Assembly (NCBI GenBank): GCA_030693325.1 | Contig: JAUYAV010000019.1 | Span: forward strand, 65,324-129,323 | Length of the DNA stretch: 64,000 nt | Direction: 5' to 3' | DNA from: a bacterium | GTDB taxonomy: Bacteria; Patescibacteriota; Minisyncoccia; UBA6257; MFKM01 | Part shown: in pieces, positions 368-13,795 of the stretch | How the letters are laid out: each line of letters opens with the position of its first letter | How positions within the stretch are numbered: position 1 is the first letter of the stretch | The notes under the pieces: model-generated | What the model was told of the DNA's origin: nothing | Databases searched by the model: none | What the model saw: the letters and a program-made list of their open reading frames with translations, nothing else | Position numbers and translations under genes: made by a program

Positions 368-440
368 CGCCCCTATAGTTCAACGGATAGAATGCAAGCT
401 TGCGGAGCTTGAAATGTAGGTTCGATTCCTACTGGGGGCA
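368..440 (+). tRNA. tRNA-Arg (anticodon GCG); no CCA encoded
   Basis: Acceptor GCCCCTA/TGGGGGC, anticodon stem CAAGC/GCTTG, loop TTGCGGA, T-arm GTAGG-TTCGATT-CCTAC. Confidence 0.7.
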
Positions 441-447
441 CAAAATT

Positions 448-484
448 AAAAGGCGATGCCTGGCGCCAGGCATCGCCTTTTAAT
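448..484 (+). terminator. Strong rho-independent terminator (GGCGATGCCTGG/CCAGGCATCGCC perfect stem, then T run)
   Basis: 11-12 bp perfect GC-rich stem followed by TTTTAATTTTT. Confidence 0.7.
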
Positions 485-493
485 TTTTATCAG

Positions 494-533
494 TGCTCCC
501 GAGAGGATTTGAACCTCTAACCCTTACGGGAAA
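494..533 (-). pseudogene. 3' portion of a tRNA-Leu-like gene (variable arm, T-arm, acceptor 3' strand CGGGAGC, discriminator A). It is not joined to any 5' half here.
   Basis: 31 nt are identical to the intact tRNA-Leu(CAG) at 57851-57881. Its acceptor strand is complementary to the 5' fragment at 1333-1339. Confidence 0.6.
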
Positions 534-548
534 CCCCGCACAAGTGAG

Positions 549-630
549 TGGGCGAGGCGGGATTCGAACCCGCACTCCTTTCGGAACACGGTTCTAAGCC
601 GTGCGCCTATACCAATTCGGCTACTCGCCC
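549..630 (-). tRNA. tRNA-Leu (anticodon UAG), type II with long variable arm
   Basis: Acceptor GGGCGAG/CTCGCCC, anticodon stem CACGG/CCGTG, loop CTTAGAA, variable hairpin TCC-GAAA-GGA, T-arm GCGGG-TTCGAAT-CCCGC. Confidence 0.85.
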
Positions 631-1292
631 AAAAATTGCTTAGCTATTACATATTTTCTTTCCAAATAATTCTCTACTTTAGGATAATACATAAAATTTA
701 ATAATTTAATAGAGTCGGCTTTCGCATAAGCTAATACATAAATATCACTTTTCATTTCAATCCACCCTCCTTTAATTTTAAATTGATTGAAAATTTTATT
801 CTTTATCCAATTTAAAAATAATGGACTTGCCGAAAATAATCTGGTTCGTAGTTGAATATGTTTACTTTCGGGATGCGAAGCGATACTAATATTTCCGTCA
901 CCATCAATACACCCTCTAAGAAAATCAGCAAAATATTCGTCGGGTATATTTAGAGAGCCGATGGTCTTTGATTTAGCGGGGGTTAATCCTAATGATAATA
1001 AAAATTCATAAAAATTTTTGTCACCAAATTGGACTTGAAAATATTTTTTAATTTTTGATTTTTCACGGGTTTTACGCCCAATTCTATTTTTAAGCCCCAA
1101 GCATTTTTTAAAAGTTAAAATCATATCTTTGTCCTTTGAAGTCATGTTTAAATGCCGACCGTCTTTAGATAAATTCCCATCGGTTGCGATAAGGCCTATT
1201 GCATAAGCAAAGTTAGGAGACCATTCTATTAGTACTTTGTTTAATCGTTTCATTATTATGTCAATTATACTAAACCACATAGCGTTTGCCAA
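621..1292 (-). CDS. Double-motif LAGLIDADG homing endonuclease (223 aa; TTG start at 1292, or the internal ATG four codons later)
   Basis: Two motifs: YAIGLIATDGNLS and FLRGCIDGDGNIS. The stop codon TAG is nt 8-10 of tRNA-Leu(UAG). Confidence 0.85.
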   Translation of the reverse strand: MANAMWFSIIDIIMKRLNKVLIEWSPNFAYAIGLIATDGNLSKDGRHLNMTSKDKDMILTFKKCLGLKNRIGRKTREKSKIKKYFQVQFGDKNFYEFLLSLGLTPAKSKTIGSLNIPDEYFADFLRGCIDGDGNISIASHPESKHIQLRTRLFSASPLFLNWIKNKIFNQFKIKGGWIEMKSDIYVLAYAKADSIKLLNFMYYPKVENYLERKYVIAKQFLGE

Positions 1293-1313
1293 TGTTCGAG
1301 TGTTTTAATTATT

Positions 1314-1339
1314 GTGCCTGCCAGTTCCGCCACGGGAGC
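1314..1339 (-). pseudogene. 5' portion of a tRNA-Leu-like gene (acceptor GCTCCCG, then TG and the D-arm 5' part) lying directly upstream of the LAGLIDADG ORF
   Basis: 15 nt (tgccagttccgccac) are identical to intact tRNA-Leu(CAG). Its acceptor is perfectly complementary to the 3' fragment at 495-501. Confidence 0.55.
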
Positions 1340-1458
1340 TTTAATTTGACAATTTATAAATTTTATGCTATTTTTATAACTGTTTCAAGATGAGAATGTT
1401 TTTTATTTTGAAACGAGTTCTTTAATAATTTTATAAAAGAAAAACTGTAAAAGAAAGG

Positions 1459-3012: not shown

Positions 3013-3354
3013 TTAGGCACCGATTAATTGTCGGACGATGAATTCAACGCCTTTGGCGATTAAACCGACACCGATTGCCACGGCCGCGTAAATCAACTGA
3101 TTCGCGGCTGATTTGGTTTTTTCAGGATCTCCGGCGCTACCCAGATAACTGAAAGCCGCCATCATAATGAAGATTACAGCAAGAAGCAAAAGAATGGTGA
3201 AAATCCAATTGATGACGGTATTAAGAATGCGGAGGATGTCTTCAATATGAGTGATCGGAGTCGGGGCCGTCTGGATGCCTTGGGCTAAAACTAAAGTCGG
3301 CAAACCGATTAAAGATATTAACAAAATAGCGCTTTTTAATTGTTTTATTTTCAT
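3013..3354 (-). CDS. TrbC/VirB2-like small pilin-family membrane protein (paralog 3 of 3)
   Basis: Signal peptide, then hydrophobic helix, an SAGDPEK loop and a second hydrophobic helix; tandem paralogs. Confidence 0.45.
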   Translation of the reverse strand: MKIKQLKSAILLISLIGLPTLVLAQGIQTAPTPITHIEDILRILNTVINWIFTILLLLAVIFIMMAAFSYLGSAGDPEKTKSAANQLIYAAVAIGVGLIAKGVEFIVRQLIGA

Positions 3355-3385
3355 ATTTTATTTTTGTCTTTCGACCTTTTTACTA

Positions 3386-3754
3386 TTAACCGCCTAAAAG
3401 TTGCTGGATGATCGAGGTGATTCCCCAGGATATCAAGATTATACCATAACCGACGCAAGTCCAGAGAATCATTTGCTGAGCGCTTTTTATATTTTCGGGA
3501 TTATCACCGGCCGTTAAAATTTTAAAAGCGGCAAAAAGAATCATTATGGTGACAATCGGCGGAGCGATATAAACGCTCAAAGAGTAAGCGATACTGTTGA
3601 TTATCTGGCTGATACTTTCCACTCCCAAAGGATTAGGAATGGTAAAGCCGCCTCCTTGGTTGCCGCTTGGCGTTGTGCCCCCAGAGCGAGTCTGCGCCAA
3701 AACTTTATTAATCCCAAAAACAGCCGCGTATATTTTTATTAAAAGATAATTCAT
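3386..3754 (-). CDS. TrbC/VirB2-like small pilin-family membrane protein (paralog 2 of 3)
   Basis: Same architecture with a TAGDNPEN loop. Confidence 0.45.
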   Translation of the reverse strand: MNYLLIKIYAAVFGINKVLAQTRSGGTTPSGNQGGGFTIPNPLGVESISQIINSIAYSLSVYIAPPIVTIMILFAAFKILTAGDNPENIKSAQQMILWTCVGYGIILISWGITSIIQQLLGG

Positions 3755-3769
3755 AATCTTATTTTAACA

Positions 3770-4102
3770 TTAACACTTAATCGTGTACCATGGCCAGTTG
3801 AGTCCACCGGTCATTAAATTGAGAAAAGTGTTAAGAATCACCCAGGCGCTTAGCATAATGACTATTCCGATAATCGCCGAAAAAATGATACCCTGACTTT
3901 CTTTGAGTTTACTCGGATTGCCGCTGTTTATTATCATCATTATTCCGCCGAAAATTATAAAGGCAACGGCCAAAGGAAAGGCGATGTCTTGCGTCAAAAA
4001 ATTAATTATTTTTTGTCCAAATTGTAAAAAATCGCACCAAGTGCAACTGGTTCCGGAGCATTCGGGCGCAAGTTTAGCGAAAAATAAAACATTCAATAAC
4101 AT
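3770..4102 (-). CDS. TrbC/VirB2-like small pilin-family membrane protein (paralog 1 of 3)
   Basis: Same architecture (NSGNPSK loop); its start abuts the stop of the SBP gene. Confidence 0.45.
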   Translation of the reverse strand: MLLNVLFFAKLAPECSGTSCTWCDFLQFGQKIINFLTQDIAFPLAVAFIIFGGIMMIINSGNPSKLKESQGIIFSAIIGIVIMLSAWVILNTFLNLMTGGLNWPWYTIKC

Positions 4103-12924: not shown

Positions 12925-13599
12925 ATGGCACGATTTAAAGATCACGAAAAAGCGCTAAATTTAAGAAGGCAGGGAATGAGTTATAGCCAGATTAAGAAAT
13001 TGCTGAAAGTAAGCAAGGGCACTTTGAGTGTTTGGCTAAGAGATTATCCTCTATCAAAACAAAGGATAAGGGAGCTAAGAGATTGGAATGAACAAAGAAT
13101 TGAAAGGTGCAGAGAAACAAAACAAAGGAAGAAAGAAAAGAGACTTAAGGATGTTTATGAATTACAGGAAAAAATTCTTTTGCCCTTAAAAAGTAAAGAG
13201 ATTTTTATGATGGGTCTAGGTCTTTATTGGGGAGAAGGCACTAAACATAGAGCAGGTTGTCTTTCTGTTTCAAATACCGACCCGTCTATTATTAGATTTT
13301 TTATTTGCTGGCTTAATAAGAGTTTAAATGTTTCTAGAAATAAAATGAAAGTAGCTCTGCAATTATATAGCGATATGAATATTGATAAAGAGATGCGGTA
13401 TTGGTCAGAAACTTTAAAAATTCCCCTTCCTCAATTCGTAAAGCCGTATATTAAAAAAACTTCCAGTAAAAATATAAATCATAAAGGGGGCTTTGGACAC
13501 GGAACTTGTAATTTAAGGACAAATAACACTTCACTTTCCGAGAAAATTATTATGGGATTGAAAGTAATTTCGGATAAATATGGTCAAAGGGGCGTGTAG
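12925..13599 (+). CDS. HTH plus single LAGLIDADG-like domain protein (degenerate motif GLGLYWGEGTK); homing-endonuclease-like
   Basis: N-terminal HTH (MSYSQIKKLLKVSKGTLSVWL). C-terminal region is similar to the second domain of the 621-1292 endonuclease (DPSIIRFFICWLNKSL vs SPLFLNWIKNKI). Stop TAG is nt 8-10 of tRNA-Ile. Confidence 0.45.
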   Translation: MARFKDHEKALNLRRQGMSYSQIKKLLKVSKGTLSVWLRDYPLSKQRIRELRDWNEQRIERCRETKQRKKEKRLKDVYELQEKILLPLKSKEIFMMGLGLYWGEGTKHRAGCLSVSNTDPSIIRFFICWLNKSLNVSRNKMKVALQLYSDMNIDKEMRYWSETLKIPLPQFVKPYIKKTSSKNINHKGGFGHGTCNLRTNNTSLSEKIIMGLKVISDKYGQRGV

Positions 13600-13661
13600 C
13601 TCAGTGGTAGAGCGCTACTCTTATAAAGTAGAAGTCGCAGGTCCGATCCCTGCCACGCCCA
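13590..13661 (+). tRNA. tRNA-Ile (anticodon UAU)
   Basis: Acceptor GGGCGTG/CACGCCC, D-arm GCTC-AGTGGTA-GAGC, anticodon stem CTACT/AGTAG, loop CTTATAA, T-arm GCAGG-TCCGATC-CCTGC. Confidence 0.8.
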
Positions 13662-13795
13662 CAAAATTAAAAATTTTTTAGAGGTTGACATTAGAAATTC
13701 TTTTGCTAAGATAGGGTCTTTCACGCTCTTTAAAAACATATTGTTCTGCTTTTCGCTTTTAGCAGACGATTAAAATTAGGAAAGGGGGATATACG

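Follow-up and report, generated by a model that had tools for sequence, protein, structure and literature searches.

Homing endonucleases have been described both beside and within tRNA genes. In phage T4, SegB is a free-standing homing endonuclease encoded in a tRNA gene cluster, and its spread has been termed 'intronless homing' (PMC2330249; reviewed in PMC3984707). Group I introns with LAGLIDADG endonucleases occupy the anticodon loops of bacterial tRNA genes, such as cyanobacterial tRNA-Arg(CCU) at 36/37, and have been reported from tRNA genes of Patescibacteria, where tRNA-Leu(UAG) and PF14528-type proteins are absent from the intron cases listed (PMC13011429). For an intron of phage T4, double-strand breaks have been shown to undergo illegitimate repair during homing when homology is limited (Parker, Belisle and Belfort 1999, as cited in PMC3984707). 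Our literature searches returned only tRNA group I introns and rRNA insertions for this phylum, and no description of the cassette that we report below.

We analysed a 64,000-nt stretch of DNA (the window; GCA_030693325.1, contig JAUYAV010000019.1, positions 65,324 to 129,323 of the forward strand) from a member of the Patescibacteriota (Minisyncoccia; UBA6257; MFKM01). In this window, two halves of a tRNA-Leu-like gene flank a LAGLIDADG endonuclease gene and a second, complete tRNA-Leu(UAG) (Table 1). The two halves are very probably the remnants of the resident tRNA-Leu(UAG), with acceptor GCUCCCG/CGGGAGC, that was broken by a cassette consisting of the endonuclease gene and a tRNA-Leu(UAG). 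The insert inside the resident gene (cassette plus two short linkers) is ~0.79 kb long; non-coding DNA upstream of its ORF amounts to only ~60 nt, and there is none between the ORF and the tRNA. The promoter sequence at 1388-1360 is also found upstream of the intact gene in the syntenic metagenome contig L076, and in the related locus L001. The terminator is common to the resident tRNA-Leu gene and a convergent tRNA-Arg(GCG) at 369-441, and a hairpin terminator lies at the equivalent position in L076 and L001 as well.

Table 1. Features of the interrupted tRNA-Leu locus, in window coordinates.
Feature	Position	Strand	Evidence or sequence
Predicted promoter of the resident tRNA-Leu(UAG), TTGAAA, 17 nt, TAAAAT	1360..1388	-	promoter scan, 10/12 matches
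Probable 5' remnant of the resident tRNA-Leu(UAG), positions 1 to ~26, acceptor 5' strand and D-arm	1314..1339	-	GCTCCCGTGGCGGAACTGGCAGGCAC
20-nt linker, left junction of the insert	1294..1313	-	AATAATTAAAACACTCGAAC
5'-half relic of a tRNA-Leu(UAG), D-loop to anticodon	1270..1293	-	ATTGGCAAACGCTATGTGGTTTAG
Predicted -10 box TATAAT, abutting the relic anticodon	1264..1269	-	promoter scan
LAGLIDADG homing endonuclease gene (from its likely start), 210 aa, two motifs	621..1253	-	Pfam and PDB matches
Complete, apparently foreign tRNA-Leu(UAG), acceptor GGGCGAG/CTCGCCC	549..630	-	ARAGORN; Rfam tRNA, 65 bits
17-nt linker, right junction	532..548	-	CTCACTTGTGCGGGGTT
Probable 3' remnant of the resident tRNA-Leu(UAG), position 44 to discriminator base	494..531	-	TCCCGTAAGGGTTAGAGGTTCAAATCCTCTCGGGAGCA
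Terminator, perfect 23+23-bp palindrome with flanking A and T runs	442..487	.	inverted repeat, 100% complementary, no spacer

A sequence-only reading of this stretch had noticed the two pieces and treated them as the ends of one tRNA-Leu gene. The 5' piece lies where it was placed, at 1339-1314 on the minus strand; of the 3' piece, placed at 533-494, the 38 nt from 531 to 494 are tRNA-derived (variable arm, T-arm and acceptor 3' strand), while the first two nucleotides (TT) do not belong to the tRNA. We also recovered the reported identities with the intact tRNA-Leu(CAG) at 57926-57845 (15 nt, GTGGCGGAACTGGCA, and 31 nt, respectively) and the compensatory acceptor match, with GCTCCCG and CGGGAGC complementary at 7/7 positions. 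This pair is not shared by all tRNA-Leu paralogs, which would have spoken against the observation, as the three intact tRNA-Leu genes of the window carry GCCCCTG (CAG), GCCCGGG (UAA), and GGGCGAG (UAG). Intact tRNAs with exactly the GCTCCCG/CGGGAGC pair were found at no fewer than 120 metagenome loci, and tRNA-Leu(UAG) made up 94 of the 120 matches listed. Specifically, the 5' piece matches an intact tRNA-Leu(UAG) in L144 without a difference over 21 nt, and the 3' piece does so over 38/38 nt. The same 21-nt identity of the 5' remnant holds for other intact tRNA-Leu(UAG) genes of the GCTCCCG type (e.g., L076), and its last 5 nt differ at 2 positions from a variant ending in ...CAGACGC. The 3' remnant aligns with L076 3924-3962. 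Together with the uninterrupted gene in syntenic L076, the intact metagenome tRNAs that carry the same acceptor pair indicate that the halves are the two ends of one gene and not chance matches. The disrupted gene had been called a paralog; it appears instead to be the resident tRNA-Leu(UAG), whose isoacceptor type the nested tRNA shares. Its anticodon arm was described as unrecognisable, and resident positions ~27-43 can indeed no longer be recognised: an artificial join of the 5' and 3' remnants gives 64 nt without an anticodon arm, in which ARAGORN calls no gene. The endonuclease was present in none of the 120 listed intact GCTCCCG-type loci, 63 of which have at least 750 nt of upstream sequence.

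Comparison with related genomes, as the sequence-only reading had proposed, revealed the uninterrupted gene with acceptor GCTCCCG in L076. This contig has the same promoter, one intact GCTCCCG-type tRNA-Leu(UAG), the terminator, tRNA-Arg(GCG), and tRNA-Phe in the order of the window, with no endonuclease gene. L076 is an empty site, and presence and absence of the cassette can be compared at one and the same locus (empty in L076; occupied in the window, L001, and L054). The endonucleases of L001 and L054 are 95-96% identical to that of the window. Cassette, linker, and 3' remnant of L001 are 94-96% identical to the window, whereas the tRNA-Arg next to the L001 cassette is 99% identical to L076 and only 76% identical to its counterpart in the window. 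The cassette is far more similar between the two genomes than their flanks are. These identities among L001, L076, and the window were taken from segment-wise local alignments; a three-way MAFFT alignment misplaces L076 because of the insert.

The remnants of the resident gene are decayed or lost in relatives. L001 retains the 3' remnant with 2 changes relative to the window, and both L001 and L054 carry the same cassette without the 5' remnant and the 20-nt linker (a 46-nt indel). Only eroded 3' remnants are left in L181 and L182, which end in ...CCTCTCGGGAGCA and ...CCTGTCGGGAGCA, respectively. We found no 3' partner for the full-length upstream 5' halves of L007, L009, L011, L020, L021, and L048, which makes the retention of both remnants in the window unusual. 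The L001-type state, without the 5' remnant, may either be derived by deletion or be older than the state in the window. Three explanations had been offered for the split gene, and the empty L076, the lack of a 5' remnant in L001/L054, and the eroded L181/L182 support insertion of a cassette and loss of the middle of the gene.

Another of these explanations was that the 0.8 kb is an intron or other intervening sequence (group I, group II, or split tRNA) that is excised from the transcript, with the two halves then making up a functional tRNA. The matching acceptor strands, the position of both halves in one transcription unit between promoter and terminator, and the frequency of group I introns in Patescibacteria tRNA genes (PMC13011429) would be consistent with this. 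Nonetheless, we consider it hardly credible. Covariance-model searches of 300-1600 (cmscan, permissive filters) matched no intron family at E ≤ 10 and located no group I ribozyme core around the ORF, and Rfam searches of the whole window (gathering thresholds) and of 300-1600 (permissive) returned tRNAs only and no other structured RNA. With regard to group II introns, there was no domain V/VI match in Rfam, and the sole ORF encodes a LAGLIDADG protein and no reverse transcriptase. The non-coding space of the insert is below 70 nt. An intron-tolerant search (ARAGORN, introns up to 1200 nt) joined no tRNA from the halves, which lack the anticodon arm, whereas the halves of an archaeal-type split tRNA hold all tRNA parts. 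In addition, L001 and L054 have no 5' half, the 3' halves of L181 and L182 are eroded, and the insert itself contains an intact gene for the same isoacceptor. The locus shares with tRNA group I introns the host phylum and the endonuclease superfamily; unlike them, it has no ribozyme and is not restored by splicing, and function would come from the second, complete tRNA gene.

Genomic islands integrate into tRNA genes via integrases, duplicate only the 3' end of the gene, and leave an intact hybrid gene. The locus in the window resembles such islands in that mobile DNA targets a tRNA gene and brings sequence that keeps tRNA function, and differs from them in that a whole foreign tRNA appears to have been delivered, the resident was destroyed, and no integrase is present. 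The last of the earlier explanations, in which the halves would be the att-type scar left when an integrase-mediated element entered a tRNA gene, seems very improbable to us. Duplicated tRNA 3' ends, which are typical of such integration, do occur in the related loci L014, L055, and L003/L010, and an integrase gene lies downstream in L184. However, 494-1339 contains no integrase ORF and encodes the endonuclease and the tRNA only, the borders of the insert are without direct repeats, and the pieces are complementary, non-overlapping parts of one gene rather than a duplicated end. Moreover, such integration leaves the tRNA intact, and here it is destroyed.

The double-motif LAGLIDADG ORF reported at 1292-621 does exist, and its likely start is the ATG at 1253, which gives 210 aa, the modal length of the listed homologues. 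It matches Pfam LAGLIDADG_3 (PF14528; E=4e-7), and its best solved relative is PDB 2DCH, deposited as a 'putative homing endonuclease' (E=2e-4 over residues 16-183). We take 2DCH to be one of the monomeric LAGLIDADG enzymes of the I-Tsp061I / I-DmoI type from archaeal rRNA introns. The protein in the window is likewise a ~200-aa single chain with two LAGLIDADG motifs, unlike them in its very low sequence similarity and in being free-standing before a tRNA gene rather than inside an rRNA intron. Its two motifs, GLIATDG (D25) and GCIDGDG (D117/D119), each have the conserved acidic residue of monomeric double-motif enzymes, and D25/G26 and D117-G120 are invariant in 34 homologues. Judged by the Pfam and PDB matches, these residues, and a dN/dS of 0.06-0.14, the endonuclease looks active. 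We counted 2292 homologues of the window endonuclease.

A domesticated protein, too, could be under strong purifying selection and keep a fixed place in the genome. It is thus conceivable that the LAGLIDADG protein is an immobile host factor (e.g., a regulator of tRNA-Leu expression) and that the fragments stem from recombination between tRNA-Leu paralogs. The low dN/dS, the constant length of >2000 homologues, and the same place before tRNA-Leu in very divergent lineages agree with this view, and a conserved tRNA relic upstream of the gene (see below) could be an operator. We regard it as unlikely in light of the presence/absence at one locus among relatives (L076 versus the window and L001), a cassette that is 94-96% identical although the neighbouring tRNA-Arg genes are 76% identical, a foreign tRNA type inside the remnants of the resident one, and the invariance of both catalytic motifs. 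Domesticated and mobile roles of the protein are not mutually exclusive.

The nested tRNA-Leu(UAG) is complete, as the sequence-only reading held, and overlaps the stop codon of the endonuclease gene, whose TAG (623-621) forms positions 8-10 of the tRNA. Its copy in L001 shares 94% identity with that of the window and only ~71% with the resident-type gene in L076. In L001, L002, L013, L023, L026, L028, L031, L179, and L181, the endonuclease gene is likewise followed by this tRNA type. By its sequence, the nested tRNA is of foreign origin. The unit of relic, endonuclease gene, and intact tRNA-Leu recurs in ~50 Patescibacteria genomes; the endonuclease gene lies directly before a tRNA-Leu, abutting or overlapping it, in 46/53 tabulated loci (52 GTDB genomes).

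The relic in this unit is a third tRNA-derived piece, absent from the earlier account: a 5' half at 1293-1270 that ends right after the anticodon (36/37 or 37/38), the site where tRNA group I introns sit. Its TTGGCA (1292-1287) makes a predicted -35 box 17 nt before the TATAAT, and together these form the best promoter-like site in 300-1500 (promoter scan, 11/12 matches). Nearly all related loci have the relic as a conserved element before the endonuclease gene, and most of them combine it with TATAAT, the start codon usually lying 6-10 nt past the box. In all 30 of the 30 loci scored, the relic carries the anticodon of the downstream tRNA (TAG with Leu(UAG), 22/22; GAG with Leu(GAG), 8/8). 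The relic motif occurs only once in the window and in 0/87 endonuclease-free loci of the GCTCCCG acceptor type. No 3'-half relics were found in the spacers between endonuclease gene and tRNA of related loci. Pairing of the relic anticodon-stem strand with the downstream tRNA, as an alternative exon, was considered and fails in L010 and other loci.

The two linkers mark the junctions of the insert. The 17-nt right linker is common to L001, where it reads CTACTTTTGCGGGTT, and has exactly the length of one anticodon arm; it could be flanking sequence from the donor or the anticodon arm of the resident gene after heavy mutation. The halves joined by this linker give a tRNA-like ARAGORN call, as do 148/200 shuffled linkers. 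The 20-nt left linker, absent from L001 and L054, has no match at ≤4 mismatches at comparable positions in the fetched loci or elsewhere in the window, and a search for the source of both linkers in all loci and the window yielded only a few matches with 3-4 mismatches, at unrelated positions. The left junction (5' remnant plus 20-nt linker) is present in the window alone, and alleles with and without the endonuclease are found together in the same aquifer metagenomes (Hainich contigs), as would be expected if the 5' remnant were an assembly chimera of endonuclease-bearing and endonuclease-free strains of one population. We find such a chimera highly unlikely, considering that the 20-nt linker after the remnant is unique and occurs in neither of the two allele types, that a k-mer chimera would join at shared sequence, and that L184, with a separate 5' remnant, and L185 independently show a comparable detached 5' remnant.

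Taking the halves as remnants of a resident gene broken by the cassette, the locus can be compared with SegB. Like SegB, the endonuclease gene lies outside any intron, beside tRNA genes, is missing from the same locus in related genomes, and appears to be inherited with the neighbouring tRNA gene(s), replacing recipient markers. As with T4 Seg/Mob-type endonucleases, the gene is in neither an intron nor an intein, and it adjoins the gene region that it would convert. SegB is a phage GIY-YIG enzyme that recognises the T-arm, whereas the enzyme in the window is a LAGLIDADG protein of cellular Patescibacteria genomes. The system in the window also differs from SegB in that it keeps to a single isoacceptor throughout (Leu UAG or GAG), draws its predicted promoter from a tRNA 5'-half relic, ends in a stop codon that overlaps the tRNA, and left both halves of the destroyed resident gene.

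We propose that the resident tRNA-Leu(UAG) once sat between its own promoter (1388-1360) and the hairpin terminator (487-442), and that the ~0.79-kb insert entered it and obliterated the anticodon arm (~positions 27-43). The D-loop TTGGCA of the relic and the abutting TATAAT would drive the free-standing LAGLIDADG gene. The incoming tRNA would be co-transcribed with the endonuclease mRNA, released by normal tRNA processing, and, as far as the 64 kb of genome in view can tell, take over the role of the destroyed tRNA. Alleles of tRNA-Leu(UAG) without the endonuclease would be its target, with the break probably at or close to the anticodon loop. The right junction of the window may have been inherited through recombination within the 3' remnant, and the left junction may have arisen by illegitimate end joining. 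Illegitimate repair of the kind cited for the T4 intron in PMC3984707 would explain a non-homologous left junction (5' remnant plus 20-nt linker) with a homologous crossover on the right (3' remnant); it was demonstrated for the T4 intron and is deduced from sequence in our case.

Going further, we tentatively suggest that the unit of relic, LAGLIDADG gene, and complete tRNA-Leu might be a natural cleave-and-replace drive on an essential tRNA, which we think less likely than not to be its nature. On this reading, tRNA-Leu(UAG) or tRNA-Leu(GAG) genes without the endonuclease would be destroyed by it in their anticodon region, and since the cassette brings its own working tRNA, invaded cells would survive even with illegitimate repair. 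The relic half-site would serve as promoter as well, and perhaps as operator or homology arm, which would explain why its anticodon always matches the linked tRNA. Processing of the tRNA 5' end would remove the stop codon of the endonuclease and thereby throttle expression. A similar design is known from ClvR (cleave and rescue), an engineered Cas9 toxin-antidote gene drive in insects, in which the nuclease that destroys an essential gene comes together with a functional copy of it. Endonuclease-linked (n=36) and endonuclease-free (n=71) tRNA-Leu(UAG) genes showed no fixed nucleotide difference at tRNA positions 16-50; the rescue tRNA is thus without an evident resistance mutation in this region, and the analogy with ClvR is not established.

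The apparent 'split tRNA' would represent a cassette caught as it destroys an essential tRNA gene of a cellular genome and takes over its function, and the empty site, a fresh insertion, and decayed states can all be compared. It belongs to a large endonuclease family (>2000 homologues) tied to tRNA-Leu(UAG)/tRNA-Leu(GAG) throughout Patescibacteria, of which we found no description in the literature searched. In these cassettes, a tRNA half appears to have been reused as a promoter, and tRNA positions 8-10 provide the stop codon. The tRNA-Leu fragments and the 219-aa gene calls annotated at such loci would be by-products of the cassette and not introns or pseudogene noise. More broadly, whole tRNA genes can travel between lineages as passengers of an endonuclease. 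If the drive reading is true, it would add a homing strategy without description in the literature searched, and tRNA genes would be horizontally mobile across Patescibacteria.

The split tRNA-Leu described in the sequence-only reading was confirmed. The 15-nt and 31-nt identities of its halves to the intact tRNA-Leu(CAG) at 57926-57845 were correct, as was the 7/7 complementarity of their acceptor strands, and this acceptor pair is missing from the window's three intact tRNA-Leu genes. Metagenome contigs were scanned for uninterrupted tRNAs of the form GCTCCCG...CGGGAGCA, yielding at least 120 loci, and among the matches listed 94 of 120 were tRNA-Leu(UAG). Given this proportion and the identity of locus L144 to the window's halves (21 nt in the 5' piece and 38 nt in the 3' piece), the split gene can be assigned to tRNA-Leu(UAG), so that the halves and the complete gene enclosed by them are of one isoacceptor. 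An uninterrupted GCTCCCG tRNA is also present at the syntenic site of a metagenome contig, L076. Its promoter sequence is that of the window, and behind it lie a single intact tRNA-Leu(UAG) of the GCTCCCG type and a hairpin terminator, followed on the opposite strand by tRNA-Arg(GCG) and then tRNA-Phe. The two pieces of the window align to the two ends of this intact gene, 5' piece to the start and 3' piece to the end, and the window therefore represents an insertion into a resident gene. What survives of that gene is positions 1-21 and 44-76, the first segment possibly reaching to 26 with two changes; the anticodon arm is not recognisable. The endonuclease was absent from L076 and from all 120 GCTCCCG-type loci among the matches listed, and no relic motif was found upstream among these loci, 63 of which offer at least 750 nt of upstream sequence. 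At the level of sequence comparison, insertion into a resident tRNA-Leu(UAG) and delivery of a foreign tRNA-Leu(UAG) are established.

Features of the split tRNA-Leu(UAG) region in the window, with the 3'-end repeats of three comparison loci
Feature	Position	Strand	Remark
Promoter-like site TTGAAA-17 nt-TAAAAT	1388-1360	minus	
5' piece GCTCCCGTGGCGGAACTGGCAGGCAC	1339-1314	minus	
20-nt linker AATAATTAAAACACTCGAAC	1313-1294	minus	
tRNA 5'-half relic ATTGGCAAACGCTATGTGGTTTAG	1293-1270	minus	
TATAAT	1269-1264	minus	abuts relic directly
Endonuclease ORF	ATG at 1253 to TAG at 623-621	minus	
Complete tRNA-Leu(UAG)	630-549	minus	first ten bases contain the ORF's final codons and stop
17-nt linker CTCACTTGTGCGGGGTT	548-532	minus	
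3' piece TCCCGTAAGGGTTAGAGGTTCAAATCCTCTCGGGAGCA	531-494	minus	
Perfect 23+23-bp palindromic terminator	487-442		
tRNA-Arg(GCG)	369-441		convergent
ATTCCCGCCCCGGGCAC repeats, L003	1640-1656		
ATTCCCGCCCCGGGCAC repeats, L004	1520-1536, 1640-1656		
ATTCCCGCCCCGGGCAC repeats, L010	1900-1916, 2020-2036, 2140-2156		

The perfect 46-bp palindrome between tRNA-Arg(GCG) and the tRNA-Leu remnant, with A and T runs at its sides, could terminate transcription both ways; it was missed by a simple terminator scan because it has no loop.

Three explanations had been offered for the split gene. The first, an intron-like element, was ruled against by a permissive Rfam search (E<=10) of 300-1600 that gave no hit to any intron family, group I and group II included, by ARAGORN in intron mode, which returned the nested tRNA only, and by the non-coding space of the insert (~60 nt ahead of the ORF and 0 after), which leaves no room for a ribozyme. 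An att-type scar was ruled against by the absence of an integrase ORF within the insert and of direct repeats at its borders. The remaining explanation, a cassette inserted in a tRNA-Leu gene with loss of its middle, is supported by the empty site in L076 and by the decay or loss of the remnants in relatives. L001 and L054 carry the same cassette (endonuclease 95-96% identical to the window's), and in both the resident promoter region runs straight into ATTGGCAAACGC..., the 46 nt of 5' remnant and linker being gone; L001 retains the right-hand linker and 3' remnant with two changes. The resident 3' end is eroded in L181 (83%), where only ...AATCCTCTCGGGAGCA is left, and in L182/L183 (78%), where only ...CGAATCCTGTCGGGAGCA is left and the linked tRNA is of another type. 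In L184/L185 (74%), the 5' remnant GCCCTCGTGGCGGAAC is detached, ~95 nt upstream of the relic. The remnants are dispensable and decaying, which is incompatible with a working split or intron-containing gene, and the L001-type left junction may be either an older or a derived state. We also note that L184 has three genes with a Pfam T4SS_pilin domain adjoining the cassette, similar in size to three tandem ORFs of the window (3013-4102, minus; 110-122 aa) with hydrophobic segments.

The 210-aa protein has a Pfam match to LAGLIDADG_3; among solved structures it is best related to 2DCH, a monomeric enzyme with two motifs. Its 2292 homologues are mostly 207-225 aa long, and all taxon-named ones are from Patescibacteria. 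D25/G26 and D117-G120, the acidic and glycine positions of the two motifs, were invariant in 34 aligned homologues (59-96% identity), and dN/dS against relatives was 0.06-0.14. Judging from these values, the endonuclease looks like an active enzyme under selection. The commonest length among listed homologues is the 210-aa form starting with MKRL; for the homologues P0001 and P0005 (219 aa), automatic annotation places the start ahead of the -10 box, at an ATG within the tRNA relic (MWFSIID...).

The endonuclease gene directly precedes a tRNA-Leu in 46 of 53 tabulated loci. These loci come from 52 species-representative genomes, each of which belongs to Patescibacteria judging by its name or context. 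The linked tRNA was UAG at protein identities of at least ~50% and GAG for more distant proteins. Exceptions included L043 and L044 (distant homologues of 43-45%, followed by tRNA-Phe and without a relic), L051 (tRNA-Leu(CAA) upstream), and L036 and L039 (tRNA-Leu(UAG) upstream, none downstream). In many loci (the window at 621-630, minus; L001, L002, L179, L181, L182, L184) the ORF terminates inside the tRNA, its TAG stop being U8-A9-G10, and the last two residues vary with the acceptor (...FLGE* before GGGCGAG, ...FLRV* before GCGGGTG).

The start codon is nearly always preceded by an element resembling a tRNA-Leu 5' half, TTGG(C/T)A..CGC-TA-NNNNN-YT-TAG or -GAG, followed by TATAAT. By the strict pattern, the relic anticodon was that of the downstream tRNA in 22/22 UAG and 8/8 GAG loci. 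All relics have 'TA' in place of the G26 of real tRNAs, which sets a 17-nt spacer between the D-loop TTGGCA (-35 box) and TATAAT (-10 box), and in the window TTGGCA-17 nt-TATAAT (11/12 matches) outscores every other promoter-like site in the region. The tRNA relic thereby forms part of a hybrid promoter, and the ORF behind it overlaps the tRNA at its other end. Since the start codon usually lies 6-10 nt past the -10 box, the mRNA is probably leaderless or nearly so. In six loci (L007, L009, L011, L020, L021, L048) the relic is lengthened to a full acceptor 5' strand; this strand is not complementary to the downstream tRNA, and a search nearby found no 3' partner.

The GGGCGAG-type nested tRNA of L001 is 94% identical to the window copy and ~71% to the L076 resident-type gene, and tRNAs of this type also lie behind the endonuclease in many other lineages. 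Between L001 and the window, relic and endonuclease are 96%, the tRNA 94%, and linker plus 3' remnant 96% identical, whereas the adjacent tRNA-Arg(GCG) of L001 is 99% identical to L076 and only 76% to the window. Hence the cassette, right junction included, was exchanged between hosts that had diverged. The right crossover lies within the 3' remnant common to the window, L001, and L076, as would be expected of homologous break repair in a GCTCCCG-type gene if the donor already had such a remnant. The left junction of the window (5' remnant and 20-nt linker, for which no homologous source was found) resembles the product of illegitimate end joining, which has been described in homing where homology is limited (Parker et al. 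1999, as cited in PMC3984707). The 17-nt linker may be either donor flank or a mutated anticodon arm. Compared for a feature by which the linked copy might escape cleavage, linked (n=36) and endonuclease-free (n=71) tRNA genes showed no fixed difference at positions 16-50.

Other tRNA fragments were observed at several loci. In L018 (2211-2480), the endonuclease gene is preceded by a cluster of tRNA-Leu pieces. One tRNA-Leu(CAG) is intact, and its acceptor strand recurs in a 5' half; the others are a 16-nt 5' fragment and 67 nt from the 3' part of a second tRNA-Leu(CAG). Such a cluster suggests repeated break-repair at these loci. Fragments of tRNA-Leu 3' ends follow the cassette tRNA-Leu in L014 (3363-3385), L055 (3474-3492, 3700-3718), L027 (3335-3360), and L053 (3384-3401); those in L014 and L055 are att-like direct repeats of the 3' end of the gene itself and are of a different kind from the 3' remnant of the window. 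The last 17 nt of tRNA-Leu(UAA) recur in one to three further downstream copies at exactly 120-nt spacing (L003, L004, L010), resembling a small tandem or att-like unit whose copy number differs between near-identical contigs. The window also encodes a tRNA-Ile with anticodon UAU (13590-13662, plus; ARAGORN, Rfam 73.9 bits), whereas in most bacteria AUA codons are read by a modified CAU tRNA.

No description of this endonuclease/tRNA-Leu arrangement was found in the literature searched. The closest published parallel is the intronless homing of free-standing endonucleases, especially T4 SegB: its gene lies within a tRNA cluster, and the enzyme cleaves tRNA genes and is propagated together with those nearby (PMC2330249; PMC3984707). 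The cassette differs in its enzyme family, its location in cellular Patescibacteria genomes, its strict tie to one isoacceptor, the relic as promoter, the stop codon inside the tRNA, and the delivery of an entire replacement gene. The anticodon loops of tRNA genes, Patescibacteria included, are known to harbour group I introns that carry endonuclease genes (PMC13011429), but the window's insert has no ribozyme. Insertions bearing LAGLIDADG genes have been described in Patescibacteria rRNA genes in a study that does not mention tRNA loci (PMC11270868).

We propose that tRNA-Leu(UAG) genes lacking the endonuclease are its cleavage targets, with the cut in the anticodon loop or close to it, because relics end at 36/37 or 37/38, their anticodon agrees with that of the linked tRNA, and the resident gene has lost a segment centred on the anticodon. 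A cassette-bearing genome would then serve as repair template for the break. RNase P and 3' processing would free the linked tRNA from the co-transcript, leaving the mRNA without its stop codon, and this may limit endonuclease expression. Decay of the resident remnants and exchange of the cassette between lineages are both seen in the sequence comparisons. The split halves are in themselves debris, and they reveal a widespread endonuclease/tRNA-Leu cassette.
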